64,000 bases of DNA, from IMG/VR virus record IMGVR_UViG_3300033074_001354, positions 32,001 to 96,000 of that record. The stretch is one strand, 5' to 3'. Made by a program: the position numbers and the translations under genes. This stretch comes from a virus. Lineage: Duplodnaviria > Caudoviricetes. Shown here piece by piece: positions 18,900 to 63,520 of this stretch (its first letter is position 1; the number at the start of each line of letters is the position of its first letter). The notes under the pieces are model-generated. The model did not search any database, was not told the origin of the DNA, and saw only the letters and a program-made list of their open reading frames with translations.

Positions 18900-18907
18900 A
18901 GGGCAAT

Positions 18908-18989: not shown

Positions 18990-19004
18990 GTATGTCAACA
19001 CTTC

Positions 19005-36060: not shown

Positions 36061-36103
36061 TTAGTATCCTTTCATGACAGCAAATCATCAACCTATAGGA
36101 ACT

Positions 36104-38059: not shown

Positions 38060-38077
38060 AGGGTCTCCTTTTGTTAT

Positions 38078-38131
38078 AAAAGACGAGAAGTATTCGGTGG
38101 CTAACAATGTATAGGAACTTCTTATGTCTTT
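38078..38131 (-). ncRNA. Conserved hairpin RNA, copy B
   Basis: AAAGAC-ATA-AGAAGT-TCCTATA-CATTGTTAGCCACCGAA-T-ACTTCT-C-GTCTTT. Confidence 0.65.
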
Positions 38132-38148
38132 TTATGTCTTTAAATTAG

Positions 38149-38202
38149 TGAGGCGGGAAGTATTTCTCCAGATAGAATGTTATAGGAACTTCCTTTGCCT
38201 CA
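38149..38202 (-). ncRNA. Conserved hairpin RNA, copy A
   Basis: TGAGGC-AAA-GGAAGT-TCCTATA-ACATTCTATCTGGAGAAA-T-ACTTCC-C-GCCTCA. Confidence 0.65.
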
Positions 38203-38206
38203 ACTA

Positions 38207-38230
38207 AGAGAAACCGTAGTTTACACTGCA
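38207..38230 (-). promoter_or_regulatory. Putative phage promoter TGCA-N12-GTTTCTCT
   Basis: One mismatch to consensus; immediately upstream of hairpin copy A. Confidence 0.55.
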
Positions 38231-40779
38231 GCAACAACTTTATTTCTGTGACTAACATCCCCTGAATCGTCGCCATCATCATCTTCTTCGGTTATTTCTG
38301 CCACAACTTCGTCACCATCACTCATAGTTAACTCACCTAACTTACTTCCTAGCTCAACATCAGCTTTGATTGGTACGTCTATCCAAGCATATGGAAGATT
38401 TTCCATTATAGCAATTAGCTGTGGTTTTACTATGGCAACTTCATGCATAGGACATTCCAAAACAATAGAATCATGCACTGTCATAACAAGCCTTGATTCA
38501 AGATTATTATCAAATATGAATTTGTTTATTAGGATCAAAGAAGATAATGTCATATCACTGGCCAATCCTTGAATTGGACTATTGAAAGATTGGCGTTCTG
38601 CATGTGACTTTATGGTGCGATTATAGCTATGGATCTCAGGTAATCTTCTCTTGCGACCAATAAGACTACGAACAAATCCAAATTTACGAGCGTGATCTAT
38701 GCAAGCGTTCATATATTTCTTTACAGCTGGATATCTGTTGAAGTAATCATCCATGAATCTTCTAGCTTCGTCTTCTGTACATTCCAAAATAGAAGCCAAT
38801 GCTGGTGGCCCCATCCCATAAACCAATCCAAAGTTAATAACTTTTGCAAAACGACGCACTTCTTTAATAACAGGATCATTGTCTCTCTTGGAATGAAATT
38901 CTTCATATGGCATTCCATGAACCTGAGAACCAACAAACGAATGAATATCCTTGCCCTCATGAAACGCTCTCATGAGTCCAGGGTCGCGAGAACATATAGC
39001 TAATACACGTAACTCAATTTGGGAATAATCGGCGTGCACATATACATAACCTTTCTTAGGGACAAATATATTCTTAATGGATTTGTCACGAGGAATCTGC
39101 TGCATATTTGGCTTTGAACTAGATAGTCTTCCTGTCTTTGTCCCAGTAATAAAATACCCACCATGAACACGACCATCATATTTCATCCACTCTTTACGAG
39201 CCAATTGCACATACTTGGTGTTTGCCGTTCTAAGAATCTTCCAATCGCAAACAACCTTAACTACTGGGTGCTTCTTCTCTAGAGGCTTCAAAGCCTTTTT
39301 ACCAGTAGAACGACCACCTGTCTTTGTTAATTTCAAACATGGGAGCTTGAAATAATCATAAAGTAGAGTTGATAACTGTACAGAAGAACCAAAATTTATT
39401 GCCTTTAACTTCTTATTTTTTATTGAAGAAACTTTTCCTTCTTCAACATCTCGCAGCATCATAACAGACTCTGGAAATTCTTGAAGCTCGTGCTCAAGCT
39501 TAGTAAGCCTATTAGGAACATCCACTTCCAGAAATTTAACATAATCAACATCTATAGCAATGCCTGCTTTTTCTATATCCTTTAGCATCTCCACTGATGG
39601 CATCATTATATTGTAAAATACCCAAGCATGTTTGGAATCTTGTTCAAGAACAGGCTTCTGCTCTAAGTAGATACGAATAGTGGCATCAACGTCGGCACAA
39701 CAGTATCGGCTAAGAATGCCCAGCTCTACCTTGTCCATATCTCCTTTGCTGATACCCATTCTCTGTAGATAACCATCCAATTCCATATCATAGCGACCCA
39801 TATCAGTATACTGCACAGCTAGACGCTTTAACGATAAATACTTTTTATTCTCGTCCAACGCATACTCTCCGACCATTGTGTCATAGAAAAGATTGTTGCT
39901 TCTAAAATTCCACAACACTTCTGTGTACAATGCATCAAATTTTAAATTATGGCCTATCTTCTTAATACTATCGTCCTTAAGTATCTCTATAACATATTGC
40001 TTTATCTCTTGATATACTTCATCAGAAAACTGCCTTTGTGGGTGATCAAATGGGATAAACCAAGCATGCTTTGGTTTGGTAGTAAACCCAGTACCAACAA
40101 TTTTAGCCTCAACATGCCAAGGGTCCAATCCAAATGATTCTATATCAAATACTGTAAACCCAGCTTCATAAATTTCAGCAACTAATTCATACATGTCTTC
40201 AATAGTTTTCACCGTACGATAGCCATCTATTTTTCTATCTGTGCACATTGCATCATAAATTGATTTCAAAGCAAGAATACTAGTAACAAATTTATCAGCA
40301 TCTTCTTCGCCAGCCATAACTCTAGATGGATGGACAATAGGATAATAGCATACTCCATCTTCTGACATAATAAGGTCACCAACCATCTTCTGAGAAACCT
40401 TCTTACCAAGAAAATACTGCACTGCTACGCTCCCAACAAGAACAACTATCTTCAAATTTGGCATGCTCTTAATATCCAGCTCTGTGTTCTCGCCGCATAA
40501 TTTAATTTCTTCTTTTGTAGCGGAACGAGATTCAGGAGTGCGACACCGAAGAACATTGGCTATTGCAATTTTGGAGAGATCAAATCCTGACTCTCTGAAT
40601 ACTTCTAACAAAAAAGTTCCATATTGGCCAGACATTGGCCTATTGGATGAATCGTCAGATAATCCAGGTGCTTCGGAAACTAGTAGAAGGGGGCTTTTGG
40701 GGTCTCCATACAATGGCATCCTTGGTGAGCTGCAGGTCTTATATAAACCACACTTTTCACAATTATCCCAATAATTCAA
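38221..40779 (-). CDS. polA: Family A DNA polymerase with N-terminal family-4 UDG-like domain and 3'-5' exonuclease
   Basis: CEKC..., EAPG, LRCR.P, HPS (UDG); FDIE, HNLKFD, YCCAD (exo); TGRLSS..PNMQ, DYSQIELR, AKVINFG..YG, VHDS. Confidence 0.93.
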   Translation of the reverse strand: MNYWDNCEKCGLYKTCSSPRMPLYGDPKSPLLLVSEAPGLSDDSSNRPMSGQYGTFLLEVFRESGFDLSKIAIANVLRCRTPESRSATKEEIKLCGENTELDIKSMPNLKIVVLVGSVAVQYFLGKKVSQKMVGDLIMSEDGVCYYPIVHPSRVMAGEEDADKFVTSILALKSIYDAMCTDRKIDGYRTVKTIEDMYELVAEIYEAGFTVFDIESFGLDPWHVEAKIVGTGFTTKPKHAWFIPFDHPQRQFSDEVYQEIKQYVIEILKDDSIKKIGHNLKFDALYTEVLWNFRSNNLFYDTMVGEYALDENKKYLSLKRLAVQYTDMGRYDMELDGYLQRMGISKGDMDKVELGILSRYCCADVDATIRIYLEQKPVLEQDSKHAWVFYNIMMPSVEMLKDIEKAGIAIDVDYVKFLEVDVPNRLTKLEHELQEFPESVMMLRDVEEGKVSSIKNKKLKAINFGSSVQLSTLLYDYFKLPCLKLTKTGGRSTGKKALKPLEKKHPVVKVVCDWKILRTANTKYVQLARKEWMKYDGRVHGGYFITGTKTGRLSSSKPNMQQIPRDKSIKNIFVPKKGYVYVHADYSQIELRVLAICSRDPGLMRAFHEGKDIHSFVGSQVHGMPYEEFHSKRDNDPVIKEVRRFAKVINFGLVYGMGPPALASILECTEDEARRFMDDYFNRYPAVKKYMNACIDHARKFGFVRSLIGRKRRLPEIHSYNRTIKSHAERQSFNSPIQGLASDMTLSSLILINKFIFDNNLESRLVMTVHDSIVLECPMHEVAIVKPQLIAIMENLPYAWIDVPIKADVELGSKLGELTMSDGDEVVAEITEEDDDGDDSGDVSHRNKVVAAV

Positions 40780-40782
40780 GAC

Positions 40783-42102
40783 CTACACCATCCAAAATTC
40801 TGCGAATGCCTTTTCAGCGCCAGCACATATTTTTTCTGATAGCTTACCAATCTTAAGGTCATTATAATATCCTGTAGGATTGCCATTAGAAAGATCTATA
40901 AACTGCTGGGCAATGACTTTTCTATCAAACAAATTAAATGTCTCACGACAATTATTGCGAATCTCTTCTGCTTTATGCGAAGGCATATTAGAGTATTCAA
41001 CAATATAATCAGCATACTTTTTAGGAGTATCTGCTGAATGGGGAATGCTTAAATAATTTACACCCGCTTTAAATACAACGCCGTTCCCTTCAAGATTATC
41101 GCTGATTCCTAAAGGTCTCGCCACAGGAATTGCTCCCATACGAATTGCATCCACAACCACACGATTGAAATGATCACCCTTCTTGGAGTATCGATTTGAC
41201 CAGGAAGGATCAATAAGAAGACGAGACATAGATAATAGGCTATCACGAGTCTGATTATCTATATAGCCTAGGAATTCCATGCCATTTTCGACAGCAACAT
41301 CCCATATCTTACGGCCATACCAAGGAGACGTAGGATCTTCTAGGTATTTATATCTGTCTTTGCATTTATTTGGACTTGTCATATAAGCTTGCTCAAGTCC
41401 ACCACCAGCAATAAATCGAAACTCATCTGATTCTTTTGCTGGCATGTATGCAATGGCCTTTACCAAATCATCAACATGTTTCCAACCTTTGAAAATCTGA
41501 CAATTAACAAACCCCTTGTTTCTCTTTTCATATGGCAACGCAAACGCTTGTTCATCTAATGCTGGCTGTGGATTGAATATCATAGCCCTCGGTAAAGGTA
41601 TATTTTCTGCTGTTGCGTAGGCACAAGGGTGAACACAGGCAAGACCAATCATATTATCAGCTACGGATGCCAGCCATGGGTAAGAATTCTCAAGATTGCC
41701 ATCGTGTATAACAGCAATCTGCTTGACAGGAACATCATAGAGACCAAGCCAATCAGAATTGCCCCTTTGATGTTCCTGCATTGTAGGTACTGGTATTTGC
41801 CAAATAATTAGATCAAAGCCAGAAAGAACAGCTTTAGACCTCTCTACCGCTTCCACACCTTTGTATGGAAGGCGATTAACTGCAGGAAAACACCAACCCC
41901 TTCCTTGATCTACAAAGAGTCCTGAATGACCAATAGAAAATGTACTTGTGTCACGCTTTTGGTCACGGACTTTATCTTTCCAAATAGCTTCAAATAAAAC
42001 TGTCTCGTGGCCTAACTCTTTGAACCCAGCAATCAACTCTTCTGTGTGGTTGATAATTCCACCCATATTGTTGATGCCATAAAGAACGATGGCAATTTTC
42101 AT
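40783..42102 (-). CDS. GT-B fold glycosyltransferase
   Basis: MKIAIV...GG...HTEEL..G....GHE; WKHVDDLVKA; FLGYI; F.RVVVDAI..GAIPV. Confidence 0.7.
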   Translation of the reverse strand: MKIAIVLYGINNMGGIINHTEELIAGFKELGHETVLFEAIWKDKVRDQKRDTSTFSIGHSGLFVDQGRGWCFPAVNRLPYKGVEAVERSKAVLSGFDLIIWQIPVPTMQEHQRGNSDWLGLYDVPVKQIAVIHDGNLENSYPWLASVADNMIGLACVHPCAYATAENIPLPRAMIFNPQPALDEQAFALPYEKRNKGFVNCQIFKGWKHVDDLVKAIAYMPAKESDEFRFIAGGGLEQAYMTSPNKCKDRYKYLEDPTSPWYGRKIWDVAVENGMEFLGYIDNQTRDSLLSMSRLLIDPSWSNRYSKKGDHFNRVVVDAIRMGAIPVARPLGISDNLEGNGVVFKAGVNYLSIPHSADTPKKYADYIVEYSNMPSHKAEEIRNNCRETFNLFDRKVIAQQFIDLSNGNPTGYYNDLKIGKLSEKICAGAEKAFAEFWMV

Positions 42103-42410
42103 TAAACAGCAGCCTTTCTCTTGTACTTGCGAGCTTCACCAATTTTATAAGAACGACCATCAATCTTGAGTGTCTTGAGAGTTTCAAGATTAATGTTGCG
42201 ATGCTCATCCTTTTGGATATCAAACACATTGATGAGATTCTTAAGACTGGGCTTATATGACATTCCAATTCCCTTGACTCCCTTTTTAACACCCAAACGA
42301 CATGTCATTTCCCTCAGCGTTTCATCCTTCTTCGTGAAAGAAACGGAAAAGATTCTACCGTTGGAATTGACAATTTTATTATACGCTTGGTACTTAGATA
42401 TTCGTGTCAT
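42102..42410 (-). CDS. Small basic SH3-like beta-barrel phage protein
   Basis: GRIFSV.FTKKD...REM.CR.GV...VFD....R.I pattern. Confidence 0.55.
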   Translation of the reverse strand: MTRISKYQAYNKIVNSNGRIFSVSFTKKDETLREMTCRLGVKKGVKGIGMSYKPSLKNLINVFDIQKDEHRNINLETLKTLKIDGRSYKIGEARKYKRKAAV

Positions 42411-42411
42411 A

Positions 42412-42801
42412 CTATTTATCCTTTTCTACCTGTGCTTGTAACGCCAGCACAGATTGTTTAAACTTTTCATATTCTTCTGGATGCGTTACCATATACCCAG
42501 TTATAGCCTTAAAACAATAATTAGCTGTGTCAAATAACGTGTCCAAAATTGGCTCGCCCTTACCAGTATCTGGATTCTCCCATACAGTAGGATCAAAACT
42601 ATCTAAACGATCCGTTTTCCTGTAGATATTATGCGCAACTCCAGTCATACCACGCTTGTAGCATGACATTCCATACGTCTTACATTTAGCATTCTGTAGA
42701 ATATATGCCAATTCCGTTACTTCCTTAAACCTCTTATCCTGAGAATCAGGACCATCTGCTAGTATCAAATCAGTATTTTGCTTAGAAGTTCTGTTAGCCA
42801 T
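42412..42801 (-). CDS. Nucleotide-modification-associated domain 1 (Nmad1/DUF1599-like)
   Basis: K...YG.S....G....I.RK.DRL...E...DTL.D.ANY. Confidence 0.7.
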   Translation of the reverse strand: MANRTSKQNTDLILADGPDSQDKRFKEVTELAYILQNAKCKTYGMSCYKRGMTGVAHNIYRKTDRLDSFDPTVWENPDTGKGEPILDTLFDTANYCFKAITGYMVTHPEEYEKFKQSVLALQAQVEKDK

Positions 42802-42808
42802 GACTCTC

Positions 42809-43441
42809 CTATTTTGGGTTTGAATAACTATCAGCTACTGCATCATGTATCATATTTAATTTTATCATTTCAGAAAATTCTAATCTTACCAAAAAAGCAA
42901 CAAATTCTTGTAAAGATTTTAGCTGTTTATAAAAAGGATGCCTTGCAATTATAGATACGCCACGAGACATTATCTCCTTCATATTAGTGTTTCCTAATGA
43001 AACCTCTTCGTAGCAATAAAGACAAAGCTCAAGCATGTCTGCTAGGGCAACACAACTGCCCTCTAAATCTTTCTTGCAATCAGAAGCGATCTCCTTATAC
43101 ATCTGAACAGACTGAGGAAGCCCTTTGAAGAGTTCATCCCACATGAAGGAAGCAGTACTCTTTATTGCCTCATGAATATGTTTATTATGATGCTTCACAG
43201 GAAAAATGATATCACCAGTAAGAGCCTCATCAGCATCGTGCAACAAAGAATTACGTATAACTTTTTCTACCGAAATCTTGCCAGCATATTCTGGCAAAGT
43301 ATTCAACTCATCAGCAATCATCATGGCCAGTATAGAAACATAATAACTATGCTCTGCCACATTCTCATCATGAATTCTCCGATATGTAGAACAACGAATA
43401 ATATGCTTGAGCTTTCTAAGAGTAAAGACTAGGTCCTTCAT
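42809..43441 (-). CDS. HD-domain 5'-deoxynucleotidase (YfbR-like)
   Basis: ENVAEHSY.V, LLHD..E..TGDI..PVK, ALADMLE. Confidence 0.85.
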   Translation of the reverse strand: MKDLVFTLRKLKHIIRCSTYRRIHDENVAEHSYYVSILAMMIADELNTLPEYAGKISVEKVIRNSLLHDADEALTGDIIFPVKHHNKHIHEAIKSTASFMWDELFKGLPQSVQMYKEIASDCKKDLEGSCVALADMLELCLYCYEEVSLGNTNMKEIMSRGVSIIARHPFYKQLKSLQEFVAFLVRLEFSEMIKLNMIHDAVADSYSNPK

Positions 43442-43734
43442 CTGTTTCCTTTCTTTACTGACATTAAAATCATACGTTGATTAGAAAAGCCAATTGCTGC
43501 TCTGCCTATCGATCGTACTGGATCATGACGAAATTTCTGTATTGGTAAAACTACTTCAACTGACTGGTCATTTTGAGCAATAGTAACTGTTGTATAATGC
43601 CACTCCCAAGTATAACTTACACAATCACAATCGCATGCCGTAGAACTACAGCACCAAGTGTCAGAGCTGTTGTTTGTAGCGACAACCTTACGTCTCTTCC
43701 TAGAAACATTAGTTGGGCATTCGTACGGAGCCAA
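43438..43734 (-). CDS. Small Cys-rich hypothetical protein
   Basis: Fills the gap exactly between the TS homolog and HD genes. Confidence 0.4.
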   Translation of the reverse strand: MAPYECPTNVSRKRRKVVATNNSSDTWCCSSTACDCDCVSYTWEWHYTTVTIAQNDQSVEVVLPIQKFRHDPVRSIGRAAIGFSNQRMILMSVKKGNR

Positions 43735-44856
43735 TTAATACTCTTTCAAGTGTCTCATTAATTCTTTATCAAAGTGTAATGAAAACATATCAATTATTGC
43801 TTTTCTAGCATCACGATCATATTTACATCCAACTCTCAGTATATACTCAACGCAAGAATACACTAGATCACATGGTTGTGCATCAAACAAAATCCTAGCA
43901 GCTTGCATAGGATTGTCTTCTCTGAGATGCAAAAATGAAAATAATATCCTAGTCCAAGTAGACAACCAATCTGATTCATGCTCATCCACTGCTGATGCTG
44001 CCATCTCTGTATTGTCCACCGTATGCCGGCAACAAGATTCTAATCTCAAAATCTCATCTATTATGTTGAACACTTCTTGAAACGACTTAGTCTTAAGGTC
44101 AAATTCAAGAGGAGCAGTATGATCATATATATTAAAATCTGTAGCAGAATCAACGATATGTTGAAATCTATTATGAAACTTCTTATACATGTGACAAGAA
44201 GAAACAAAGAAGTAGAACTTTCCAACAGGAATACCCAATGAGTATGCCAATATTTCCTGAAGAACAGTCCACTCAAAGAAGTTAATATTGCTCCCCCACA
44301 AGAAATCCATACTACGAGATGCAACTTCCATATCCAGCTTTCCATCATGGACCAGAAAATGCAACCAATTATTACACGCAACATCCTTGGACTTAATATC
44401 ATGATCTTTGGCTGGATCGAAAATTTGAATAGTCGCTCTACGAGTATTTGTATCAGCTTTTAGAAGCTCCTGCACGGACTTAACCTGATCAACCGTAACC
44501 AACTGAGCGTTTCTGGTAATACCATTCCATTTTCTCAGCCTCTGGCCATAGCCAGCGCCCCACGTTTCCCCGTCATCAGAATATTCAGCTGCGCGTGGCA
44601 GATAATGCGTAAGAAACTGCATGTCAACTCTGCCAGCAAGAACCCACAACGTTTCAGCAACTTGGGCATACATATTATTATTGCGATATGGAGTCATAAA
44701 GACTCTCTTGGTAGGATCCAGCAATTCAAAAACCACTGGGTGAATCTCTAAAGTATCCATTTCCCTTCGATTAGCTGACTGCGATTTAAGCAACTCCCTC
44801 ATCACAGGTATTTGAATATCCTTTAGAGACTCCCCAGTGTAAACCTTCATCAACAA
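43735..44856 (-). CDS. Thymidylate synthase homolog, probable dUMP hydroxymethylase
   Basis: YGQRL, DQ, D..TRRA, KDVAC, RSMDFLWGSNINFFEW; Asn at the dUMP-specificity position. Confidence 0.75.
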   Translation of the reverse strand: MLMKVYTGESLKDIQIPVMRELLKSQSANRREMDTLEIHPVVFELLDPTKRVFMTPYRNNNMYAQVAETLWVLAGRVDMQFLTHYLPRAAEYSDDGETWGAGYGQRLRKWNGITRNAQLVTVDQVKSVQELLKADTNTRRATIQIFDPAKDHDIKSKDVACNNWLHFLVHDGKLDMEVASRSMDFLWGSNINFFEWTVLQEILAYSLGIPVGKFYFFVSSCHMYKKFHNRFQHIVDSATDFNIYDHTAPLEFDLKTKSFQEVFNIIDEILRLESCCRHTVDNTEMAASAVDEHESDWLSTWTRILFSFLHLREDNPMQAARILFDAQPCDLVYSCVEYILRVGCKYDRDARKAIIDMFSLHFDKELMRHLKEY

Positions 44857-44862
44857 CCGTCC

Positions 44863-45309
44863 TTATTCTGCCGATTTGGCAATAATGTTTGCTAAAATCT
44901 CGAAGAATTTTTCTTCAGAATCAATGACAATACTATATGGACGTGAATCTTTTTCATCAACTTTTGCACCTTCAATTGCAAACTTTGAATAGATCTTAAC
45001 GCCACGTGGTGAAGAACAAACATCAGCATACTTCTTGTGCTTATCACTGGAAAGACGGAAGATCGCTTTCTTGCCAGATTCTTTCTTTTCAAATGCAACA
45101 TTAAGTTCTTTCAAAGCGTTTTCAATAGTTTCAGGGGCTATCTTAACGGAAGGCATAGAATCTTGCTCCTTAGTTTTGTTAACTTCTTCACTCAACCGTA
45201 TCTTCTTACCACGCATCGCATGCCTACACTTGACATTATCTAAGCAAATACGACATTCTGAGGCAGTTGATTCATAGTAACGACCGAAGCAGTCTTGTGA
45301 CTCTTGCAT
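44863..45309 (-). CDS. Hypothetical protein with N-terminal Cys motif
   Basis: CFGRYY.....CRIC.....C. Confidence 0.55.
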   Translation of the reverse strand: MQESQDCFGRYYESTASECRICLDNVKCRHAMRGKKIRLSEEVNKTKEQDSMPSVKIAPETIENALKELNVAFEKKESGKKAIFRLSSDKHKKYADVCSSPRGVKIYSKFAIEGAKVDEKDSRPYSIVIDSEEKFFEILANIIAKSAE

Positions 45310-45366
45310 TTAGGTAATCCTCGGGGTAATGGAACGTGGAATTTTATAGCATCAACAATATAGTTT

Positions 45367-45441
45367 TCAGGGTGGTAGGATTTGAACCTACGAGATCTCG
45401 CTCCCAAAGCGAGCGCTATGGCCAGCCTAAGCGACACCCTG
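45367..45441 (-). tRNA. tRNA-Pro(TGG)
   Basis: Acceptor CAGGGTG/CACCCTG, anticodon arm CTCGC-TTTGGGA-GCGAG, T arm GTAGG-TTCAAAT-CCTAC. Confidence 0.88.
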
Positions 45442-45575
45442 TGGCAATTAAAAAGAAACGCTACTATCTATTGGATCAAACAGGCTAGGACTTTTGTTTT
45501 ATATTATCAATATGCTTCTTCATTCTGGGGATTAGTATGACATCATAAAACTTCGTTGATTTTCCCTTTATGACA

Positions 45576-45896
45576 TCAAGATCTCTTTGCATCTGTATTT
45601 CTTGCAACTTTTCCTCTGCTAACTCTAACAACGTTTTCATAGTAACTTTTCCTTTTACTTGTGCTTTTTATGTTCCAAACATATAAGCAAGCGTTATACG
45701 TATGGTCCCATTCCTGCACTCTCTTTCTCACAAGCTTTTCTCGCTGATACGCCCAATACGCCTTATCTTGCTTGCTGATGTGATGCTTGATAGACTTATT
45801 TGATGGCCTCTTTCCAAATTGCTTTATAAACCATTTCTTAAATGAAAGTCTATTAAATTTTTCTTTGCTAGACTCAACTCTTGACAATACTAGCAT
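45576..45896 (-). CDS. Basic hypothetical protein
   Basis: RBS GGGGAG upstream. Confidence 0.5.
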   Translation of the reverse strand: MLVLSRVESSKEKFNRLSFKKWFIKQFGKRPSNKSIKHHISKQDKAYWAYQREKLVRKRVQEWDHTYNACLYVWNIKSTSKRKSYYENVVRVSRGKVARNTDAKRS

Positions 45897-45908
45897 TCTA
45901 CTCCCCCT

Positions 45909-46571: not shown

Positions 46572-47212
46572 TATTGCACCTCCATTGCATGATTACTCTT
46601 TATACCAAATATTGCACTAAATTTAACAGCAACATCCTTGTCTAGGAAAAACATAAATCCATTATCAAGCTCAATCCATCCAATGTACTTGTCATGAACA
46701 CATAGTGGACGACTCTTTGTCTTCAGCTTAGCATGCGCCTCTAATACTTTGTCAGAGGACATAGCATCAGCTAGCCAAACGCATTCCTTTGTTCGGATTC
46801 TCTCAGGGTGCTGATCGTTGGCGAAGATGGATATACGACGGTAAGTTTCTTGCTGCCATTCTGGCCTCGTAATTGCATACACGATCTTCTTTCCTGTGTA
46901 TACAACGCCAGGAAATAGCGATGAGAATTCTCTATACGAAAATTCCACTTCCTTTTCATACAGTGCAAACTTACTGGCATCTACATGCAGATTCTTGAAG
47001 AAATTTGGCAAAGCCCCAAACTCAAATTCTGCAGAACCCATGTAATCAAATTGAAACAATGGCTTAAGAAGAGAACTCCATCCCTTATACAGTTCCGTCA
47101 GAGTGCGCTTCTCCTTTAGCATATTCTCAAGATCAACCCGTTGCCCTTCGTCCCATAGTGAAGGCTTCTGCAGCCTTTGAACTAGATAAGAAGAATTTTC
47201 CATACTATTCAC
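46571..47212 (-). CDS. Conserved phage hypothetical protein
   Basis: YLVQRL...FDYMGSAEFEFGALP motif. Confidence 0.65.
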   Translation of the reverse strand: MNSMENSSYLVQRLQKPSLWDEGQRVDLENMLKEKRTLTELYKGWSSLLKPLFQFDYMGSAEFEFGALPNFFKNLHVDASKFALYEKEVEFSYREFSSLFPGVVYTGKKIVYAITRPEWQQETYRRISIFANDQHPERIRTKECVWLADAMSSDKVLEAHAKLKTKSRPLCVHDKYIGWIELDNGFMFFLDKDVAVKFSAIFGIKSNHAMEVQ

Positions 47213-47855
47213 CCTTATGTTTCAATTGGCAAGTTGCTTTGTATACCATTTTTAAAATATATCCCTCTCGAGTATTAGGCCAAGACATGCTGCCATCTGT
47301 CTTTTTGTAGTAATGATTGCACCTATCAATAAGCTCGTTGACTCGGCTTTCCTTAAGCGTCTCAGATATAGCCAGTCTAGTATATTCAGCACAGAGTTTA
47401 ATTGCAAGCTCAGACAGCACTTCTTTCATGTGGGATTCAACAGCATCTTCACCAATTATTTCATCTACTGCATCTTGAATCAATTCCTCTTCAGATGGCA
47501 TAATTACGCGATCAACAAGCACGTTGCATCGAACGCATTGAGGATCTCGAACTTGGTGCGCTGAACATATTGAATGAGCACCTTTCAACAGGAATGAAAT
47601 GGGCACTTTGGTTGATTTTTCATACAGTTTCATTGCGGATTGCTTCCAAGTCTCTAAATCTTTTGTTAATATTTTAATACTCCATTCATAATGATCCACC
47701 TTCTCCCGTCTACCCTTGGCTAAGCCAAGTCGTCTTTCTCTGTCTAGAGCATCAACTATTAGCATATATGGCCTATCTTTTCCACCTTGTTTATACCCAC
47801 AAAGTTTATTCCATAAATCTTTAGCAATTTTTACTAGGTCAGAGGTATTTTTCAT
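47205..47855 (-). CDS. Hypothetical protein
   Basis: Coupled ORF. Confidence 0.5.
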   Translation of the reverse strand: MKNTSDLVKIAKDLWNKLCGYKQGGKDRPYMLIVDALDRERRLGLAKGRREKVDHYEWSIKILTKDLETWKQSAMKLYEKSTKVPISFLLKGAHSICSAHQVRDPQCVRCNVLVDRVIMPSEEELIQDAVDEIIGEDAVESHMKEVLSELAIKLCAEYTRLAISETLKESRVNELIDRCNHYYKKTDGSMSWPNTREGYILKMVYKATCQLKHKGE

Positions 47856-48147
47856 GTCTTCATCCTTCTGTTTGTGAAAGAAACCAACTCACACAAAGCA
47901 TCACCATAGGCCTGCGCAGATTGTAGACATTGTTCATTATTGCTAGCTCTTGAACGTGCCAATTTACGCCTCTTAATCTTCTTGCTGAGAGTATCAGCCA
48001 ATTCCCATCCAGCTATTTTCTCAGCATCATCTAATGCATGAAATGTTTTGAATCTATTTAGTTCCCTAGCAATTTTCTTAGCACTGCCTATTGCCATAAT
48101 GAGCTCATCAATCTTTGGTGTCATTTTATTCCTGCGATTACCAGTGC

Positions 48148-48483
48148 TCATAAGGCACCAGCTTCAGCCAGATTAACTTCATGACTGGGAGTAGACCACA
48201 CTTCCGTGCCTTTGGAAAGATCGTTACAATCGACATGCTGACCAAACTCTGCGGAAAACCAATGATAAAATGATTTACCACACTTACGACATTCTGTTTC
48301 TTCTGCCAGTTCTGCCCTAATAGTATCAATCTCAGGGTCTAAAAACATATACTCCTGGAATGCCTGGTTAACTGCATCATCTGCACTGGCAGCTTCATAC
48401 ATCTCAACCATGGCACATATAGGCTTGCCATGACTTTCGCCAATCTCACGATATACAACATAATGTTTCATTATAGTGTTCAT
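48148..48483 (-). CDS. Hypothetical protein
   Basis: Coupled ORF with CRKC. Confidence 0.5.
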   Translation of the reverse strand: MNTIMKHYVVYREIGESHGKPICAMVEMYEAASADDAVNQAFQEYMFLDPEIDTIRAELAEETECRKCGKSFYHWFSAEFGQHVDCNDLSKGTEVWSTPSHEVNLAEAGAL

Positions 48484-48761
48484 GACGGCACCTTAACGAA
48501 AGGTATAGAATTAATCTTTTCAGATGCTGCAGCAACACTCTTGACCCCACGAATAAAATCCTTATGCTCATGACACACAAAAACTTTGAACCTGTGCGTC
48601 TCATCCTTCCTCGCACTGACCAACTTGCCGTTACGGTAGCAAACATCGCAAACTTCAACTTTCATAAAGCACCTGCTTTCTTGTTAATGGAGGAAGATAC
48701 ATGTAGATAACAAAAAGCATTAGAGTCTTTGGGCATTGTATGTTTAACCATGGGGCGCTCC

Positions 48762-49421
48762 TTAAACAGTGACGCCAACAACGGCGTCGTAAGCAGAATG
48801 AATTTGATTAAGAGCGGAACGGAAATCACCAGGCTGAATATTCAATGTGTCCATGATATTCCACTTATAGACACGAACGCATTCAGCACCACGAATTTTG
48901 GCATTGCTCTTTTTAAGATGAGCTTTCCTGGCCGAAGAACGCTCGCATGATTCAAGCAATTCTTTGTTCGGATTCATGATTAGGTTGAAGACTTGTAGCG
49001 AAAGACCAGAAAGTATATCTCGCATTTGCTGCTGCATGATGTTCATGTGCATTTCATCAAAAGCATTGCTATGAACATTGTCAAATTCCGGCCCAAGCTC
49101 AACCTGGATGCCATCCCGTTTTTGAACACGAGAAAACCTAAACAATGAATCCGCACGATTTCTGATAGCTTGGCAGACATAATTACGAATATCATCTGCA
49201 CGCTTCTGCTCGTCGGAAACTTTGTTCAAATTGGAATTAGGATCATTAACAACTTCGCAGCACTTCAAAAGAGTAATCTGAAGTTCCTGGTACAAATCTT
49301 CAAAATCTAAACTTGCGTGGTTTGGAATTTTGTAACGGCGAGCTATACTTCTTGCGTAGTAAATGTATTTCTTGAAGGTGGGATCGTTTACGGTCTTTGC
49401 TAGATTATCAAAGTCTCTCAT
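48762..49421 (-). CDS. Second sigma-factor-like protein
   Basis: Region-2-like ARSIARRY...DFEDLYQE..I.LL, Y....IRNR...L.R; RBS AGGAGACCCC. Confidence 0.6.
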   Translation of the reverse strand: MRDFDNLAKTVNDPTFKKYIYYARSIARRYKIPNHASLDFEDLYQELQITLLKCCEVVNDPNSNLNKVSDEQKRADDIRNYVCQAIRNRADSLFRFSRVQKRDGIQVELGPEFDNVHSNAFDEMHMNIMQQQMRDILSGLSLQVFNLIMNPNKELLESCERSSARKAHLKKSNAKIRGAECVRVYKWNIMDTLNIQPGDFRSALNQIHSAYDAVVGVTV

Positions 49422-49460
49422 TGGGGTCTCCTATAAGTTAAGATCGACTTACGAGATGTC

Positions 49461-49488
49461 ATTATACCGCATTTTAGCATAAAGTAAA
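49461..49488 (-). promoter_or_regulatory. Host sigma70-type promoter (TTTACT-N16-TATAAT) with AT-rich upstream tract
   Basis: Perfect -10 box about 40 nt upstream of the sigma-like gene. Confidence 0.5.
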
Positions 49489-49563
49489 GAACTATTTTTC
49501 AACTATTTTAGGCCTCCTCCACTATGAGGTAACGGCCTATTAGTATAAAACTTTAGTACTATT

Positions 49564-50805
49564 TTAGCTCAAATCTTCTCGTACACGCATAAACTGTGGA
49601 AAACGAATACGTCCATCTGGCGTAAGATGCTTAAACCCTTCTACTTCTATAATCTTGCCAATCATCTCATCACGTTTTGACCAAAAATCTTTGCGCTCCT
49701 CTTCCTTAAACCCACCACCAACATGCGTTTGCACCCCATTAAGATTACAGATGAAGTACCCAAGCATACCTTTTAGCTTACCTTTTCCTTCCTCGTACCC
49801 AATAATAGTGACATCCCATGTTGCAACAGGTTTCCACTTGAGCCAAAATTCACTGCGATCAAACGGGTACATGGCGTTCAATTCTTTCAAGACAGAACCC
49901 TCAAGACCTTTATCTAAATACTCTTCATGAATTTTCATGGCCTCTTCCAAAGAAGAAACAGATTTATGCTCAAGAACTTCAATTTTACCTGGCTTATCAA
50001 AAACTTTGAGCATCGTTTCATACCTAATTTCAAATCTCGGAGTATTGCGAGAAATCCATTGTTCAGTATGCATGTAATCAAACACCAGGTACTTCAATTC
50101 TTTGGTATCTCTTTCAGACTTAGAAGCACGAACAACTTTAGCTGTTCCTTCCCAAGTACCACTGGCTATAATCTCTCCATCTATAACACAATTGGTAAAT
50201 CCCATCTGCTTGATTTCTTCTCCGATACTTTCAAGATTATACAGTGGCTTGAACCCACGAGACACAAAATTGACATCTCCTGCTCCATCAACAAAAGCAA
50301 TGCATCTCATGCCATCTATCTTCGGAGAAATGCACCATTTTCCATCCGGCAGTTTGCCAGATTCATCATCAAGAGAATCACATAACGCTATCTCAAATTC
50401 TGGGATTAACTTTGGCCAAACTTTATTCACAGTCCCAGTTGACATGCCTGCTCTAAGATTCTTCTGGAAAACTTTGAATAGCCATTTGCGAACAATAGGA
50501 TCTTTAGTCGTAAGAGTCTCTGACAGAAGTTCTCTTGCTGCATTGCCAGTAATCTCTCTTGCAGCAAGCTCATCCCTGACAAGCTTGAGTTCTTCCAGAC
50601 TAGGCACATCTTCCCTTGGATTAGAGTGCTCATCAACTTCAGAAATACCGTAATTAAGGTATGGGTTTAATGCTGTTGTCATGAGGAACTGCATAGCCTC
50701 TGGGGACGCTTTGGAAAGAATATCTTTCTTGGCATTTGAGCCTTGGGCTTGCTCTATTTGCTCAAGTGTGTAACAAGCTTCTGCAATAGAGTTCAATTTA
50801 CGCAC
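49564..50805 (-). CDS. lig: ATP-dependent DNA ligase
   Basis: KIDGMR, SR..K, DGEI, VFD, EGSVLK, WLKWK, VGGGF, RFP.F...R.D. Confidence 0.93.
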   Translation of the reverse strand: MRKLNSIAEACYTLEQIEQAQGSNAKKDILSKASPEAMQFLMTTALNPYLNYGISEVDEHSNPREDVPSLEELKLVRDELAAREITGNAARELLSETLTTKDPIVRKWLFKVFQKNLRAGMSTGTVNKVWPKLIPEFEIALCDSLDDESGKLPDGKWCISPKIDGMRCIAFVDGAGDVNFVSRGFKPLYNLESIGEEIKQMGFTNCVIDGEIIASGTWEGTAKVVRASKSERDTKELKYLVFDYMHTEQWISRNTPRFEIRYETMLKVFDKPGKIEVLEHKSVSSLEEAMKIHEEYLDKGLEGSVLKELNAMYPFDRSEFWLKWKPVATWDVTIIGYEEGKGKLKGMLGYFICNLNGVQTHVGGGFKEEERKDFWSKRDEMIGKIIEVEGFKHLTPDGRIRFPQFMRVREDLS

Positions 50806-51008
50806 ACAGCGATCCGTCCATCGGATTCGCCATGCTCCTCATCATCTTCAAAAATGAATTCACTGAATTCACCGTCATCAGTATATTTACCAAGAGAAGG
50901 CTCGTATTCTACAGCATGATAATCATTACCTTCATCATCACTGGAATACACAACCAAGGCGTCTTGCGGAAATTTGGAGAGATGCTCGATTAATTCTTTG
51001 ACTGTCAT
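50793..51008 (-). CDS. Small acidic hypothetical protein
   Basis: MTVKELIE.L..FP.DA.V..S.DDEGN motif common in phage. Confidence 0.65.
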   Translation of the reverse strand: MTVKELIEHLSKFPQDALVVYSSDDEGNDYHAVEYEPSLGKYTDDGEFSEFIFEDDEEHGESDGRIAVCVN

Positions 51009-51016
51009 AAAATACC

Positions 51017-51409
51017 TCAGTTGAAGTTGAATTGAACGTTATATTTTGTTGCACGAACTGGCCACACATATGGCAAGTTCAAAGGCGTTCCAGCAAATGT
51101 AATCCCATAATATGCAGCATCTTTCCTAATAAGATTGCTACGATGCGACATATGCAAATCTTCTCTGCCTAACCATTCAGGATATACAATTACCACAGCT
51201 TTACCTGTTTCGGCGTATATCCAAAACACGCATTTCAATCCATCAAATTCATCAGTGAGCTCAAGGCTAACATAACCATTGTCCAATGTTGGCCAATCTT
51301 CATGGTCACGAGAATCTTCACCAAGAAACTTCTTCAAATGAGCGAGCTCAGATGCTTTCAATTCTCTAGTGAATTTAAACTCACCGATGTATTCAGTATG
51401 ATATCCCAT
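51017..51409 (-). CDS. Apparently chimeric protein; C-terminus resembles the MSMEG_6728/pyrimidine-dimer-glycosylase-like tail
   Basis: PEWLG...H.SHRSNL.RKD..YY...LPYVWP without that family's N-terminal MQTF region. Confidence 0.45.
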   Translation of the reverse strand: MGYHTEYIGEFKFTRELKASELAHLKKFLGEDSRDHEDWPTLDNGYVSLELTDEFDGLKCVFWIYAETGKAVVIVYPEWLGREDLHMSHRSNLIRKDAAYYGITFAGTPLNLPYVWPVRATKYNVQFNFN

Positions 51410-51410
51410 C

Positions 51411-53030
51411 TTACATCATCCCCTGTGGCATACCACTTTGAGCCTTTTCTTGCTCTGGCTCATCCACTATAAGGACTTCCGTAGTTAACAGCAATCCAGA
51501 AACACTTGCCGCATTCTGAAGAGCGCTACGAGTAACTTTCTTTGGATCAAGGACACCTGCCTTAACCAAATCTTCATACTGGCCAGTAGCTGCATTATAC
51601 CCTAGCCCAGCTTCACTAGAAAGAACTTTCTGCACAACTACAGAACCTTCAGCACCAGCATTATTAGCAATTTGACGCATTGGCTCTTCAAGAGCTCGCT
51701 TTACAATTTGTGCTCCTACCAATTCATCACCACTAAGATTCAACTTATCCACTAAACCAGCAAGAATCAAAAGAGCAAGTCCACCACCAGGAACAGTACC
51801 CTCCTCAATCGCAGCACGAGTGGCATGTAGAGCATCATCCAAACGATCCTTTTTCTCTTTCATTTCCAACTCAGTTGCTGCACCGACACGAATTACTGCA
51901 ACTCCACCAGACAATTTAGCCAAACGCTGTTGAAGCCTCTCTTTATCAAATTCCAACTTTGCTTCCTGGATTTGAGCACGCAAAGTAGCAATTCTTTCTT
52001 CTAGTTCTTCAGGAAGACCTGCTCCTTCAACAATTGTCGTATAATCTTTTGATACACGAATCAATTTTGCACGGCCAAGAGCCTTAATCGTTAGCTTATC
52101 CATTTTAAAATCCAAATCATCAGAAACAACTTCTGTTCCTGTTAGGATGGCTATATCCTTCAATAATTGTTTACGAAGATCACCAAATCCTGGAGCCTTT
52201 ACGCAGCAAACATTTAGTTGGCCACGAAGTTTGTTGACTATAAGAGCAGCAAGAGCCTCTCCATCAATATCATCAGCAATAATCAATAGACCTTTACCTG
52301 CCTGAGCTACCTGCTGAAGAATAGGGAGAATCTCAGCAATTGCACTAAGCTTCTTATCTGTCACTATAACATATGCATCTTCATACACAAATTCCATACG
52401 AGCCTGATCCGTAACGAAATAGGATGAAATATAGCCCCGATCAAACTGCATGCCTTCAACTACATCCAAAGAAGTAGCCATTGTCTTAGACTCTTCAATC
52501 GTAATGACACCGTCTTTTCCAACTTTTTCTATGGCATCTGCCAATAACTTGCCAATCTCAGCATCACCATTTGCACTTATCCTGGCGACCTGCTCAATTT
52601 CTGTTTTATCTTGGCCTATGGGCTTGGCCATGCTGTTTAAACCTTCTATAACGGCTTCCACGGCCTTATCAATGCCACGCTTAAGGGCGGTCGGGTTTGC
52701 TCCAGCGGTAACGTTCTTGAGTCCTTCTTTATAGATAGACTGTGCTAACACAGTGGCAGTAGTCGTGCCATCACCAGCAGTATCAGAAGTCTTAGATGCG
52801 ACTTCCTTCACCATTTGTGCTCCAAGATCTTCATACTGATCTTTGAGAACTATTTCTTTTGCAACTGTAACACCATCTTTGGTTATGACAGGAGCACCAT
52901 ACTTTTTGCCAATCACCACATTCCTGCCTTTAGGCCCTAGCGTGACTTTCACGGCGTCAGCCAATTGGTCAACACCTCGTTGAACTGCTGCACGTGCTTT
53001 ATCATTAAACAATAACTGCTTTGACATCAT
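51411..53030 (-). CDS. groEL: Chaperonin GroEL
   Basis: [52 protein letters not shown]. Confidence 0.98.
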
Positions 53031-53047
53031 TTTCTCCTTAGGTTATA

Positions 53048-53119
53048 CAGGGGAGGCAGGATTCGAACCTACAACCAAGTGATTAACAATCACCTACTCT
53101 ACCATTGAGCTACTCCCCT
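53048..53119 (-). tRNA. tRNA-Asn(GTT)
   Basis: Acceptor AGGGGAG/CTCCCCT, D arm GCTC-AATGGTA-GAGT, anticodon arm GTGA-TTGTTAA-TCAC, T loop TTCGAAT. Confidence 0.85.
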
Positions 53120-53155
53120 ATGTGTAATAGTCAACGAGAGTAAAACAACTTTTCC

Positions 53156-53443
53156 TTATGATTCCTTGACGTAAAGAATATCATTCTCACGAATGATGCG
53201 ATGACGCTTATTCTCAATCATTATTTGATCACCAACATGATCTGCAATAACCACAATATCACCCTGCTTAACAGCCACGGGAATCGTAACACCAGATTCA
53301 AGTAACCTGCCTTCTCCGTGCATAACAACAATTCCCTCTGGCTTTGCTTGAGGATCCTTCGGAACATACAACCCACCAACATTGTCCTCTGGATCTATCA
53401 TGCGGATTAAGATCTTTTCACCGAGTACTTTGCCTTTGCTCAT
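53156..53443 (-). CDS. groES: Co-chaperonin GroES
   Basis: LGEKILI...GGLYVP...G.VV..GEGR...VK.GD.V...IIRENDIL; upstream of groEL. Confidence 0.9.
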   Translation of the reverse strand: MSKGKVLGEKILIRMIDPEDNVGGLYVPKDPQAKPEGIVVMHGEGRLLESGVTIPVAVKQGDIVVIADHVGDQIMIENKRHRIIRENDILYVKES

Positions 53444-53560
53444 ATTGCTTGTTACTCCTTTATTTTACTAGTATAGATATACATCAGTCAATGAAGATAG
53501 AACGCCTAATTGCACTATCCGTATGTCATAAATTAGTGCACATTGTGCAACACGAGTAGC

Positions 53561-54058
53561 CTAGATAGGTATTAACTGTCTAACACGCTCTTTTGAAATA
53601 TTGTAGATATAACCAATCTGCTCAAGAGTCAACCCCTCTTGTCGCAGCTTTTTAATGCGTTCTATTCTCTCATCTTGCTTCTTTGGCCCAACCTTTTTAA
53701 CAAAATTCTTATACACTCTTGTATAACTCAACCCAAATTTAGCTCTCAAATTCCATGCGTATCCATTAGAAATATTCAACTTCTTAGCATTCTCTTCAAC
53801 ACTTAAATCAGCATCCCACTCAGAAGCTAATCTTTTATGTAATTCAAGCCTATAATGATTTCTTCCTCGGGCAGGATGCTTGACAAATTTTAAATTATAT
53901 TTAAATGTCAATGCTCTAGCCCTTCCATTGTCAAGACCAAGTGCCTCCGCATTTTCTATAAAAATCCTATTTTCATCCCACAATAAAAGTCTATCATACA
54001 ATTTCTTAGCATTAACATTGCTTTTTAGGACCACTTGTATAACTTGCTCTTTATTCAT
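53561..54058 (-). CDS. DNA-binding protein with sigma region-4-like HTH
   Basis: GLTLEQIGYIYNISKERVRQL. Confidence 0.7.
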   Translation of the reverse strand: MNKEQVIQVVLKSNVNAKKLYDRLLLWDENRIFIENAEALGLDNGRARALTFKYNLKFVKHPARGRNHYRLELHKRLASEWDADLSVEENAKKLNISNGYAWNLRAKFGLSYTRVYKNFVKKVGPKKQDERIERIKKLRQEGLTLEQIGYIYNISKERVRQLIPI

Positions 54059-54085
54059 AGTTCCTCACATGTTTAACAACAATAT

Positions 54086-54460
54086 CTATTTACTACAAAT
54101 ATCAGATACAAAAACTTGACATCTACAATACTTGCAAGCAGCATGCATTCTATTCTGCGCATCTTCATATGAATCAAAGTGCCTATAATAGGTATGACCA
54201 CACTGACAAAGTGTATCATCACCAAACGATGGGTCATATAGCATTGTATGCCTAGCTACTTCATTCCAAGAATTAACACCCGGTGCATTAGTCTCGTCAA
54301 AAGTCCAATTTGGCCTGATATCTGCCCAAGACCAGCTCTCCTTGCCTGTAACATGCAGAGAAAACATTGGCTTATCCTTTGGCATTTCTGGGTGCTCCAG
54401 AGAAATCAATAACTTTTCAATCTCTGCCGCAATAAATTGTTTTTCTTTTTGACTAAACAT
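54086..54460 (-). CDS. Hypothetical two-module protein
   Basis: C-terminal YDP.FGD...C.CGH.YYRHFDSYE...CKYC.C module. Confidence 0.6.
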   Translation of the reverse strand: MFSQKEKQFIAAEIEKLLISLEHPEMPKDKPMFSLHVTGKESWSWADIRPNWTFDETNAPGVNSWNEVARHTMLYDPSFGDDTLCQCGHTYYRHFDSYEDAQNRMHAACKYCRCQVFVSDICSK

Positions 54461-54512
54461 ACTATCCTCTGATATGTATCCACTATCAACAAATTCAAAG
54501 TAGCCTGATATC

Positions 54513-54875
54513 TTACAGTATCAGATCAACTAGGTCTTCAGCATGCAGATACACTTCATACAACCCACAAGAATGACCATATTCCCATGCTTTCGAAAAC
54601 AAGAGATCTTTCTTAGGATTGTTAGAAATGCCGAGATACTCAAAAAGATCTTGTTTAAACTGTTCATGCAGCTCAGCAGTTTTCTGCTGGTATATCACCC
54701 GAGATTCTTTATATTTCAGGATATCTGCTTCATGCGTTTCCACAGCCTTGGCGAAAGACTTGCATTTTTCAACATATTCTTTTGTATCAGATGCTTTGTA
54801 TACAGGATTTGGAGCAATCGGCTTGATGGGTCGTTCTGGGTAAGGCAGTGGATTCTTGTACTTTTCTACATTCAT
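54513..54875 (-). CDS. Conserved phage hypothetical protein
   Basis: FKQDL...K..L.FSKAWE.GHS.G..EV; RBS AGGAGACCCC. Confidence 0.65.
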   Translation of the reverse strand: MNVEKYKNPLPYPERPIKPIAPNPVYKASDTKEYVEKCKSFAKAVETHEADILKYKESRVIYQQKTAELHEQFKQDLFEYLGISNNPKKDLLFSKAWEYGHSCGLYEVYLHAEDLVDLIL

Positions 54876-54894
54876 TTGGGGTCTCCTTTTGTAA

Positions 54895-54946
54895 TGAGAC
54901 TAGAAGTACAGCTTAACAGGCATGTATAGGAACTTCTTTTGCCTCA
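54895..54946 (-). ncRNA. Conserved hairpin RNA, copy C
   Basis: TGAGGC-AAA-AGAAGT-TCCTATA-CATGCCTGTTAAGCTG-T-ACTTCT-A-GTCTCA; preceded by GTTTCTAT. Confidence 0.65.
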
Positions 54947-54983
54947 ATCACTTACATAGAAACTTGAATCTATGCAGTGTCGT

Positions 54984-63384: not shown

Positions 63385-63520
63385 TGTTGGAACTAGAGGC
63401 TGATCTACCTACTGATCTATCCCCGCTAATACTTGAAGTATTCAACCTCAAGATCCCCAACCGAAGTCAGGTGGTGCAGGGAGTGGGACTTGAACCCACG
63501 ACACACCTTTCGTTCCAACA
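63385..63520 (-). ncRNA. Circularly permuted tRNA-like RNA (YrlA/Y-RNA-like architecture)
   Basis: T arm plus acceptor 3' strand plus ACCA come first (63472-63520); acceptor 5' strand plus D arm come later (63385-63426); ends pair TGTTGGAAC/GTTCCAACA. Confidence 0.75.

Follow-up and report, generated by a model that had tools for sequence, protein, structure and literature searches.

A stretch of 64,000 nucleotides (nt) from a virus of the Caudoviricetes (positions 32,001 to 96,000 of the IMG/VR record IMGVR_UViG_3300033074_001354; hereafter the window) contains three short hairpins with a common scaffold and different loops, two of them located directly upstream of a gene for a protein of 651 amino acids (aa). 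The locus raises the questions which kind of RNA the hairpins represent and whether they act together with this protein. An initial annotation, made from the sequence alone, had described them as covarying RNAs with a constant scaffold and a variable loop, and as parts of a candidate phage ribonucleoprotein (RNP) system. The three hairpins, named units A, B and C (Table 1), are genuine members of a large RNA family that lies outside Rfam 15 and the literature searched. The conserved scaffold is referred to as the handle and the segment that differs between units as the tip.

Identification of three handle RNAs

The three copies, their stems, the 3x1 internal loop and the differing tips were recovered where the initial annotation had placed them, to be read on the minus strand, on which all genes of this part of the window are encoded. 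Each unit consists of a basal stem of 5-6 base pairs (bp; GAGGC/GCCUC, AAGAC/GUCUU and GAGGC/GUCUC across the three units), an internal loop in which 3 nt (AAA or AUA) lie opposite one nucleotide (C or A), an upper stem of 6 bp (GGAAGU/ACUUCC or AGAAGU/ACUUCU) and a return via (A)AU-AC. On the 3′ side of the upper stem, a UCCUAUA(A)CAU strand is followed by the 13-14-nt segment that differs between the copies. Compared with shuffled sequences, unit A (-20 kcal/mol) reaches a z-score of -4.7 and unit B of -3.2, while the fold of unit C is weaker (z -1.2).

For the detection of further units, a covariance model (R1) was built in this analysis from 118 family members. All 56 model positions are matched by each of the three copies, and units A, B and C are the only R1 matches in the window and in the whole viral contig of 134,685 bases, the next match in the window having an E-value (E) of 0.68. 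The exact 12-mer GAAGTTCCTATA likewise occurs three times in the contig, only in these hairpins. With ARAGORN and the Rfam model RF00005, four true tRNAs were called in the window, none of them at the hairpin sites. The UUAGCCAC loop of unit B is similar to the CUAACCA loops of relatives (loci L011 and L013). A kissing interaction of the UGG loop of unit A with the CCA loop of unit B was rejected, with 3 bp possible at most.

Table 1. Positions of the handle RNAs and of associated features in the window.
Feature	Position	Strand	Remarks
Handle RNA unit A	38149..38202	minus	tip UUCU-AUCUGG-AGAA (UGG/AUUGG loop class); R1 59.5 bits, E 1.5e-16
Handle RNA unit B	38079..38131	minus	tip with UUAGCCAC loop; R1 47.5 bits, E 1.2e-12
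Handle RNA unit C	54895..54946	minus	tip GC-CUGUUAA-GC, look-alike of an Asn-type anticodon loop; R1 39.0 bits, E 7e-10
Promoter-like motif TGCA-N12-GTTTCT	38209..38230	minus	6 nt upstream of unit A
GTTTCTATGTA box upstream of unit C	54953..54964	minus	same box before the permuted RNA and the tRNA-like piece (19002-19013)
Shine-Dalgarno sequence AGGAGACCC of the partner gene	38061..38069	minus	9 nt after unit B
Shine-Dalgarno sequence AGGAGACCC of the 120-aa ORF	54879..54887	minus	7 nt after unit C
Candidate partner protein, 651 aa	36104..38059	minus	helical N-terminal region and TerD-fold C-terminal domain (about residues 425-600)
120-aa ORF downstream of unit C	54513..54875	minus	phrog_10980, function unassigned in PHROG

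Structure and covariation of the RNA family

A blastn search of the hairpin locus against cultured phages gave no match, and a scan of IMG/VR for the exact handle motif of the window gave a single match, which lies within a small open reading frame (ORF) and is consistent with chance. Relatives were reached via the protein: with an alignment of 22 homologues of the 651-aa protein, 80 IMG/VR loci were found and the 300 nt upstream of each homologue were read, where one to seven tandem copies of the scaffold are present nearly everywhere. The family comprises 255 distinct units at about 200 loci, which come from phages (uncultured ones and three that are cultured or named) and from assemblies of bacteria or archaea.

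The consensus of the handle is rGGC-AYA-RGNNGU-UCCUAWWAAA-[variable]-WU-ACNNCY-C-GCCy. The alignment columns T17, T18, C19, C20 and T21 as well as A44 are invariant. UUCCU lies 3′ of the upper helix and UAC at its return, and units A, B and C have both. Of the TCCTATA(A)CAT strand that had been regarded as invariant, only the UUCCU, present in units A, B and C, is conserved family-wide; the following AUA(A)CAU is particular to this genome.

In the alignment of the 118 units, 95.2% of the paired cells are occupied by a base pair, compared with 72.4% in shuffles, and 398 cells show a double change, compared with 119. The covariation score amounts to 0.709 vs. 0.244, none of 500 shuffles reached the observed values, and controls with slid partners were paired to 35-52%. 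The same two helices are predicted independently by RNAalifold. As the initial screen had demanded pairing, the test was repeated with candidates selected by sequence anchors alone, of which 160 out of 185 possess a perfect upper stem, compared with 26 (maximum 40) when the partners were shuffled. The covariation and the constant scaffold with a variable tip that had been read from three copies are thereby confirmed on a far larger set. G-U and U-G pairs (126) outnumber A-C and C-A combinations (20), and 190 of 190 viral and 52 of 52 cellular matches are oriented on the gene strand, for which reason the conserved structure is one of RNA and not of DNA.

No Rfam 15 family matches the handle, no match being obtained at an E of 1 or below, in agreement with the initial statement that the hairpins belong to no named RNA family. 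No description of the family was found in the literature on YrlA and phages, permuted tRNAs and phages, TerD and tRNA-like RNAs, tRNA-like decoys, or S-CRM01. K-turns, bulge-helix-bulge motifs, T-loops, known self-cleaving ribozymes and mimicry of CRISPR repeats were rejected due to consensus nucleotides that, by reading, do not fit and the lack of an Rfam match.

Variable tips and their similarity to tRNA parts

About two thirds of the 255 distinct units carry a tip of at most 35 nt, and in the others the tip is either a more extended hairpin, in many cases with a UUCG or GNRA loop at its end, or an insert of 80-130 nt. These long inserts are circularly permuted tRNA-like bodies that consist, in this order, of a T arm, an acceptor stem closed by a short loop and a D arm. 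Most of these acceptor stems are closed by tetraloops, so that the bodies are unable to yield a tRNA. With Rfam YrlA, the permuted cargoes score 36-48 bits at E-values as low as 9e-8; the gathering score of 69 is not reached, and the match runs through the tRNA-like cargo only.

The reverse topology also exists: a handle closed at its base and circularly permuted is located inside the anticodon loop of at least seven otherwise normal tRNAs (L026, L030, L037, L039, L065, L074 and L075), in which the acceptor, D and T arms are normal and one of which is called as a tRNA by Rfam with 57 bits. Several of the seven keep UUGG or UGGGA beside the 3′ strand of the anticodon stem.

Besides the whole permuted tRNA-like bodies, the tips include anticodon-arm look-alikes, AUUGG/UGG loops and T-arm/acceptor minihelices. 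The sequences of the short tips are non-random. ATTGG is the most enriched 5-mer (21 units vs. 2 expected, z about 14), and TGG is present in 59 of 171 short tips. Tips similar to an anticodon arm, for which a stem of 3 bp or more and a loop of 7 nt with the pattern YU-NNN-RN were required, were counted in 46 of the 171, with 12.9 expected (maximum 22); their recurrent "anticodons" are UGA, UGG, GUU and UUC. The CUGUUAA loop of unit C was seen in at least six distinct units with covarying stems. Tips of one class keep their loop while the small stem covaries, which indicates that the tips are under selection. A function of the variable loops as guides, which had been suggested initially, received no support, the tips falling into conserved classes that resemble parts of tRNAs.

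Linkage of the RNAs to the gene of a TerD-fold protein

The association with the gene of the 651-aa protein, proposed at the outset for this locus, holds strongly over about 120 loci and nine large phage genomes. Of the 69 distinct viral loci found via the protein, 68 contain one or more R1 units, nearly always within about 700 nt upstream, and the sole exception has a degenerate copy. In five near-complete genomes of 135-207 kb, 15 of the 17 R1 matches are located directly upstream of a homologue. Arrays were also collected from the RNA side, by means of the handle pattern and filtering with R1; where an ORF follows downstream, it belongs to this protein family in 22 of 41 cases, and the other ORFs are mutually unrelated. 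All four genomes reached via the RNA pattern (165-501 kb) encode a homologue with a unit at most 200 nt upstream, in addition to dispersed copies. In total, a unit precedes the homologue in nine of nine large phage genomes. Among the 40 loci from GTDB (metagenome-assembled genomes and isolates, among them Ktedonobacter racemifer, Geminocystis and Ca. Venteria), 35 contain units, all of them upstream and on the gene strand, including that of Ktedonobacter racemifer DSM 44963.

Protein and units are both present in three cultured or named phages, the cultured cyanophages S-CRM01 (g174) and S-CBWM1 (gp22) and the gut phage Phass-1, with a protein identity of 26-30%. In S-CRM01, g174 is immediately preceded by five units and immediately followed by another; in S-CBWM1, a single unit immediately precedes gp22 and a second one is flanked by tRNA genes. 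In both of these cyanophages, the partner gene lies inside a tRNA cluster. In Phass-1 (OQ749652), an unannotated gap (locus L210, 5987-6899) contains six or seven units, followed directly by the transfer-messenger RNA (tmRNA; Rfam 77.9 bits). In S-CRM01 (HQ615693), the annotated hypothetical ORF g173c (locus L208, 2791-2937) is located on the minus strand and wholly within the handle array of the plus strand, and it is probably spurious.

The neighbouring PolA, PRS-like and NAMPT-like genes of the window are not conserved in relatives. The only recurrent neighbour is the RNA ligase RtcB, found at 4 of the 40 cellular loci and at two viral loci, in one case with RtcB, RNAs and protein in this order on one strand. 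In the window, units A and B are located 9-140 nt before the partner gene, and unit C is a dispersed copy, like those of jumbo phages. At 36094-36105 on the minus strand, at the stop codon of the TerD-fold gene, the handle core AAAGTTCCTATA occurs once more. This copy may be a decayed handle unit, given that it has no 3′ partner and no R1 match; in several relatives, intact units are located directly downstream of the partner gene.

The 651-aa protein has no match in Pfam or PHROG, and PF02342 (TerD) is not reached by sequence. In the AlphaFold2 model (mean predicted local distance difference test score of 75.7), the C-terminal domain is a TerD beta-sandwich (VIA Z 9.3 to 2qz7 with 146 aligned residues and a root-mean-square deviation of 3.5, and Z 9.0 to 2kxt, the next unrelated row having Z 5.8), a fold also assigned by Foldseek with an E of 2e-4. 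The N-terminal 400 helical residues modelled alone gave generic helical matches only, with a best Z of 7.0 over about 80 residues. No Ro chain is among the top structural rows of the whole or the N-terminal model, and a profile of the 22 sequences gave no sequence match in the PDB. These comparisons gave no indication of a TROVE protein, with its ring of HEAT repeats and vWA domain. Close homologues of the 651-aa and 120-aa proteins were not found in the scans, and relatives were retrieved by the alignment-based scan alone. At about 45% identity, more than 1600 clusters of homologues were obtained, and full-length structural relatives are encoded by Campylobacter and Lactobacillus phages. The contig, which is 73% complete, contains no TROVE domain (PF05731), positive controls being detected, and no RtcB is encoded on it.

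Putative transcription signals of the handle units

The GTTTCT promoter box reported initially is a real motif of this DNA: TGCA-N12-GTTTCT occurs four times in the window compared with 0.31 expected occurrences, always on the minus strand, and one copy directly precedes unit A. The GTTTCTATG box is also located before unit C, before a permuted tRNA-like RNA and before a tRNA-like piece near 19000. The ribosome-binding site predicted after both loci could be confirmed as well (Table 1). No sigma-70 consensus promoter was found near the hairpins of the window, and no minus-strand terminator between the hairpins and their genes. In several relatives, transcription from a canonical TTGACA-17-TATAAT promoter would begin where the first hairpin has its base. 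Since neither a sigma-70 promoter nor a terminator separates them from the gene and relatives have this promoter position, the units are transcribed at the 5′ end of the partner mRNA. Among sequencing runs, no RNA data set is listed as containing this DNA, and at the contig level it is listed for two runs of one study.

Proposed function and alternative explanations

Because the conserved handle is almost always located directly before one protein gene, RNA and protein probably form a particle like that of Ro60 and its Y RNAs. Taken as a whole, this explanation, with a particle of handle-and-cargo RNAs and TerD-fold protein that acts most plausibly in tRNA damage and repair, is in our estimation about as likely as not. 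As members of a widespread handle-and-cargo family, the hairpins would be either small structured RNAs in their own right or modules with which a transcript begins. The handle, with its basal helix, AYA/C 3x1 loop, 6-bp helix, UUCCU and A/U-rich strand, would be the binding site of the co-encoded protein of about 630 aa, and the variable tip would be its cargo, which mimics one part of a tRNA (anticodon arm, GG-containing loop or T-arm/acceptor minihelix) or, in relatives, amounts to an entire permuted tRNA-like body. Such a particle could present tRNA mimics to tRNA-binding factors, and its most plausible role would be in tRNA damage and repair, alongside RtcB or against anticodon nucleases of the host. 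The structure, the family, the strand, the tip classes and the gene linkage are established by the sequence comparisons; binding of the handle by the partner protein, proposed from the gene linkage, and a role in tRNA repair or defence evasion are what we infer. The tolerance of any cargo in either topology, the single-stranded invariants and the retention of one gene through genome turnover form the pattern expected for an RNA-protein pair. In a more specific version, which we put forward only tentatively, the TerD-fold protein would hold the handle, on which interchangeable tRNA parts (anticodon arms of specific identities, GG loops, minihelices or whole tRNA bodies) are displayed. Towards anticodon nucleases and the RtcB repair pathway, these parts would function as decoys, sensors or adaptors; this display would constitute an RNA-based counter-defence or tRNA surveillance by a widespread phage and bacterial RNP unrelated in sequence to Ro60/Y RNA.

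Several observations weigh against a particle of this kind. Each unit of the window is placed between a promoter-like box and a Shine-Dalgarno sequence without a terminator, an arrangement that suits a cis-acting leader equally well, and UUCCU is complementary to the ribosome-binding site AGGAG. Unit C and many units of jumbo phages precede unrelated genes, and RtcB adjoins only a minority of the loci. An RNA-binding domain is not recognisable in the partner protein, and the known functions of TerD domains are calcium binding and ligand sensing.

The main rival is found in the mRNA itself: as a cis-acting leader operator, the hairpins would allow the TerD-fold protein or a host factor to regulate, at the level of translation or stability, both its own mRNA and a small regulon including the 120-aa ORF after unit C, possibly by pairing of UUCCU with the AGGAG ribosome-binding site. 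The order of promoter-like box, hairpin or hairpins, Shine-Dalgarno sequence within 7-9 nt and gene without an intervening terminator agrees with an operator, as do the sigma-70-type promoters of relatives that start the transcript at the first hairpin base and the dispersed copies before various genes of jumbo phages. An operator does not account for arrays of up to seven diversified units, for tip classes that are kept over deep divergence and include full tRNA-like bodies, for units that immediately follow the gene, lie among tRNA genes or precede the tmRNA, or for handles inserted in anticodon loops of tRNAs, and we consider it unlikely. The enrichment of anticodon-loop look-alikes among the tips and the units within tRNA clusters are, on the other hand, what would be expected of independent RNAs that act as decoys or sponges and capture tRNA-binding factors of the host, e.g., anticodon nucleases or modification enzymes; counter-defence at the level of tRNAs is an established theme in phages. 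The handle would then be no more than a stabilising or processing scaffold that is not bound by the TerD-fold protein, and the gene linkage would reflect a shared hotspot of RNA genes. However, the adjacency outlasts a complete turnover of the other neighbours and exists in bacterial chromosomes without tRNA clusters, and the invariance of the single-stranded nucleotides of the handle points to a specific reader, which makes unbound decoys quite unlikely.

The occurrence of the handle in two settings, inserted into anticodon loops and closing permuted tRNA-like bodies as a helix, together with RtcB, a tRNA-splicing ligase, as a recurrent neighbour, could also be explained by an intron-like or processing cassette, in which the handle marks cleavage and ligation sites of interrupted or permuted tRNAs and the short hairpins are leftovers. 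This is improbable with regard to the geometry (a 3x1 loop and a 6-bp helix instead of the archaeal bulge-helix-bulge), the tetraloop-closed acceptor stems of most permuted bodies, which give no tRNA product, the lack of a recognisable endonuclease domain and the fact that most units carry a short hairpin only. Least credible by far is a DNA-level element, i.e., a promoter, recombination site or replication signal. The units are intergenic, and GAAGTTCCTATAC is identical to one arm of the FRT site, which we take to be a coincidence, but the compensatory changes span 20-130 nt, G-U combinations on one strand are six times as frequent as A-C, and the strand bias has no exception.

If the proposed RNA-protein particle is real, it would be a second, independently evolved counterpart of the Ro60/Y-RNA particle. 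The partner gene is represented by more than 1600 protein clusters, distributed among diverse bacteria, gut phages, T4-like cyanophages and large or jumbo phages that are uncultured. The particle would provide a function for the many related proteins of about 630 aa annotated as "hypothetical" and for unannotated intergenic arrays that are sometimes mis-called as ORFs, like g173c of S-CRM01, and it would tie together tRNA mimicry, repair by RtcB and the conflict of phage and host over tRNAs. The cargo-tolerant, modular handle may also serve as an RNA display scaffold. The question is directly testable because the pair is present in cultured systems, namely S-CRM01 on Synechococcus LC16, S-CBWM1 and Ktedonobacter racemifer.

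Comparison with known RNA-protein systems

The closest likeness is that to Ro60 (Rsr, TROVE) with YrlA and YrlB, e.g., in the rsr-yrlBA-rtcBA operon of Salmonella (PMC4201824; Rfam RF02553). In both systems, the RNA is modular, with a protein-binding stem and a tRNA-like domain of T arm, D arm and closed acceptor at the place of the anticodon arm, and shorter paralogues without the tRNA-like part exist. The RNAs are encoded beside the protein gene, in bacteria as well as in phages, and RtcB recurs as a neighbour. The comparison with Y RNAs drawn in the initial annotation was therefore apt, as relatives' permuted bodies match YrlA below the threshold. By contrast, the partner protein of the handle consists of a TerD-fold C-terminal domain and an unmatched helical N-terminal region without a Pfam match to TROVE. 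The motif GNCGAAN0-1G, bound by Rsr near the 5′ end of Y RNA (PMC4201824), is absent, by reading, from the three hairpins of the window, and the handle has a consensus of its own. Handle arrays are also longer, and their tips include isolated anticodon-arm look-alikes. YrlA (RF02553, gathering threshold 69 bits) does not match units A, B and C, and a tRNA-like domain of T and D arms is absent from the window copies, which have 13-14-nt tips only, although sister units of relatives possess one. Since the threshold is not reached and TROVE neighbour, GNCGAA motif and tRNA-like domain are all missing, the handle RNA is classified as an analogue of YrlA and not as a member.

With the type III toxin-antitoxin system ToxI/ToxN, the handle loci share tandem small structured RNAs directly upstream of a protein gene under one promoter. 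However, ToxI repeats are near-identical and a terminator precedes toxN, whereas the handle units are diverged (A and B differ in both stems and the tip), no terminator is present and the protein fold is not ToxN-like. Archaeal and eukaryal bulge-helix-bulge tRNA introns and permuted tRNAs are similar in that one helix motif is found in anticodon loops and at joined ends. They differ by 3-nt bulges around a 4-bp helix, compared with the 3x1 loop and 6-bp helix of the handle, whose context is bacterial or phage and most of whose bodies are unable to mature into tRNAs.

Two further RNAs of the window, both on the minus strand, have tRNA-like features. The RNA at 63387-63518 is tRNA-like and circularly permuted, has G3:U70 in its acceptor stem and contains ACCA internally. 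It reaches 30.7 bits with Rfam YrlA (E 6e-5), below threshold, and carries AACGAAAG, close to the Rsr-binding motif. It had been thought able to form the same internal loop as the three hairpins and possibly to be bound by the same protein, but R1 finds no handle in it. At 18905-19013, a tRNA-like piece (a T arm, then ...CCCCACCA) comes after a GGTTTCTATGAAGTGTTG box and lies directly upstream of a tRNA-Met; the piece was not called by ARAGORN.

Neighbouring genes in the window

Units A and B are flanked by the 651-aa ORF and the UDG-PolA gene (38221-40779, minus strand), a fusion of a UDG domain with a family A DNA polymerase that is about 32% identical to the polymerases of the SPO1 group. 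Unit C is flanked by a primase gene and the 120-aa ORF, which is unrelated to the other genes downstream of handle units, so that no conserved partner family emerges from it. Directly after the TerD-fold gene, genes for a PRS-like (264 aa) and a NAMPT-like protein (495 aa) are located on the minus strand (33779-36060). An assignment of this pair to a Ter-like system was rejected because the synteny is missing in all 80 relatives; the two genes look like a phage NAD+ reconstitution pair. A phage GroEL-type chaperonin is encoded at 51411-53030 on the minus strand.

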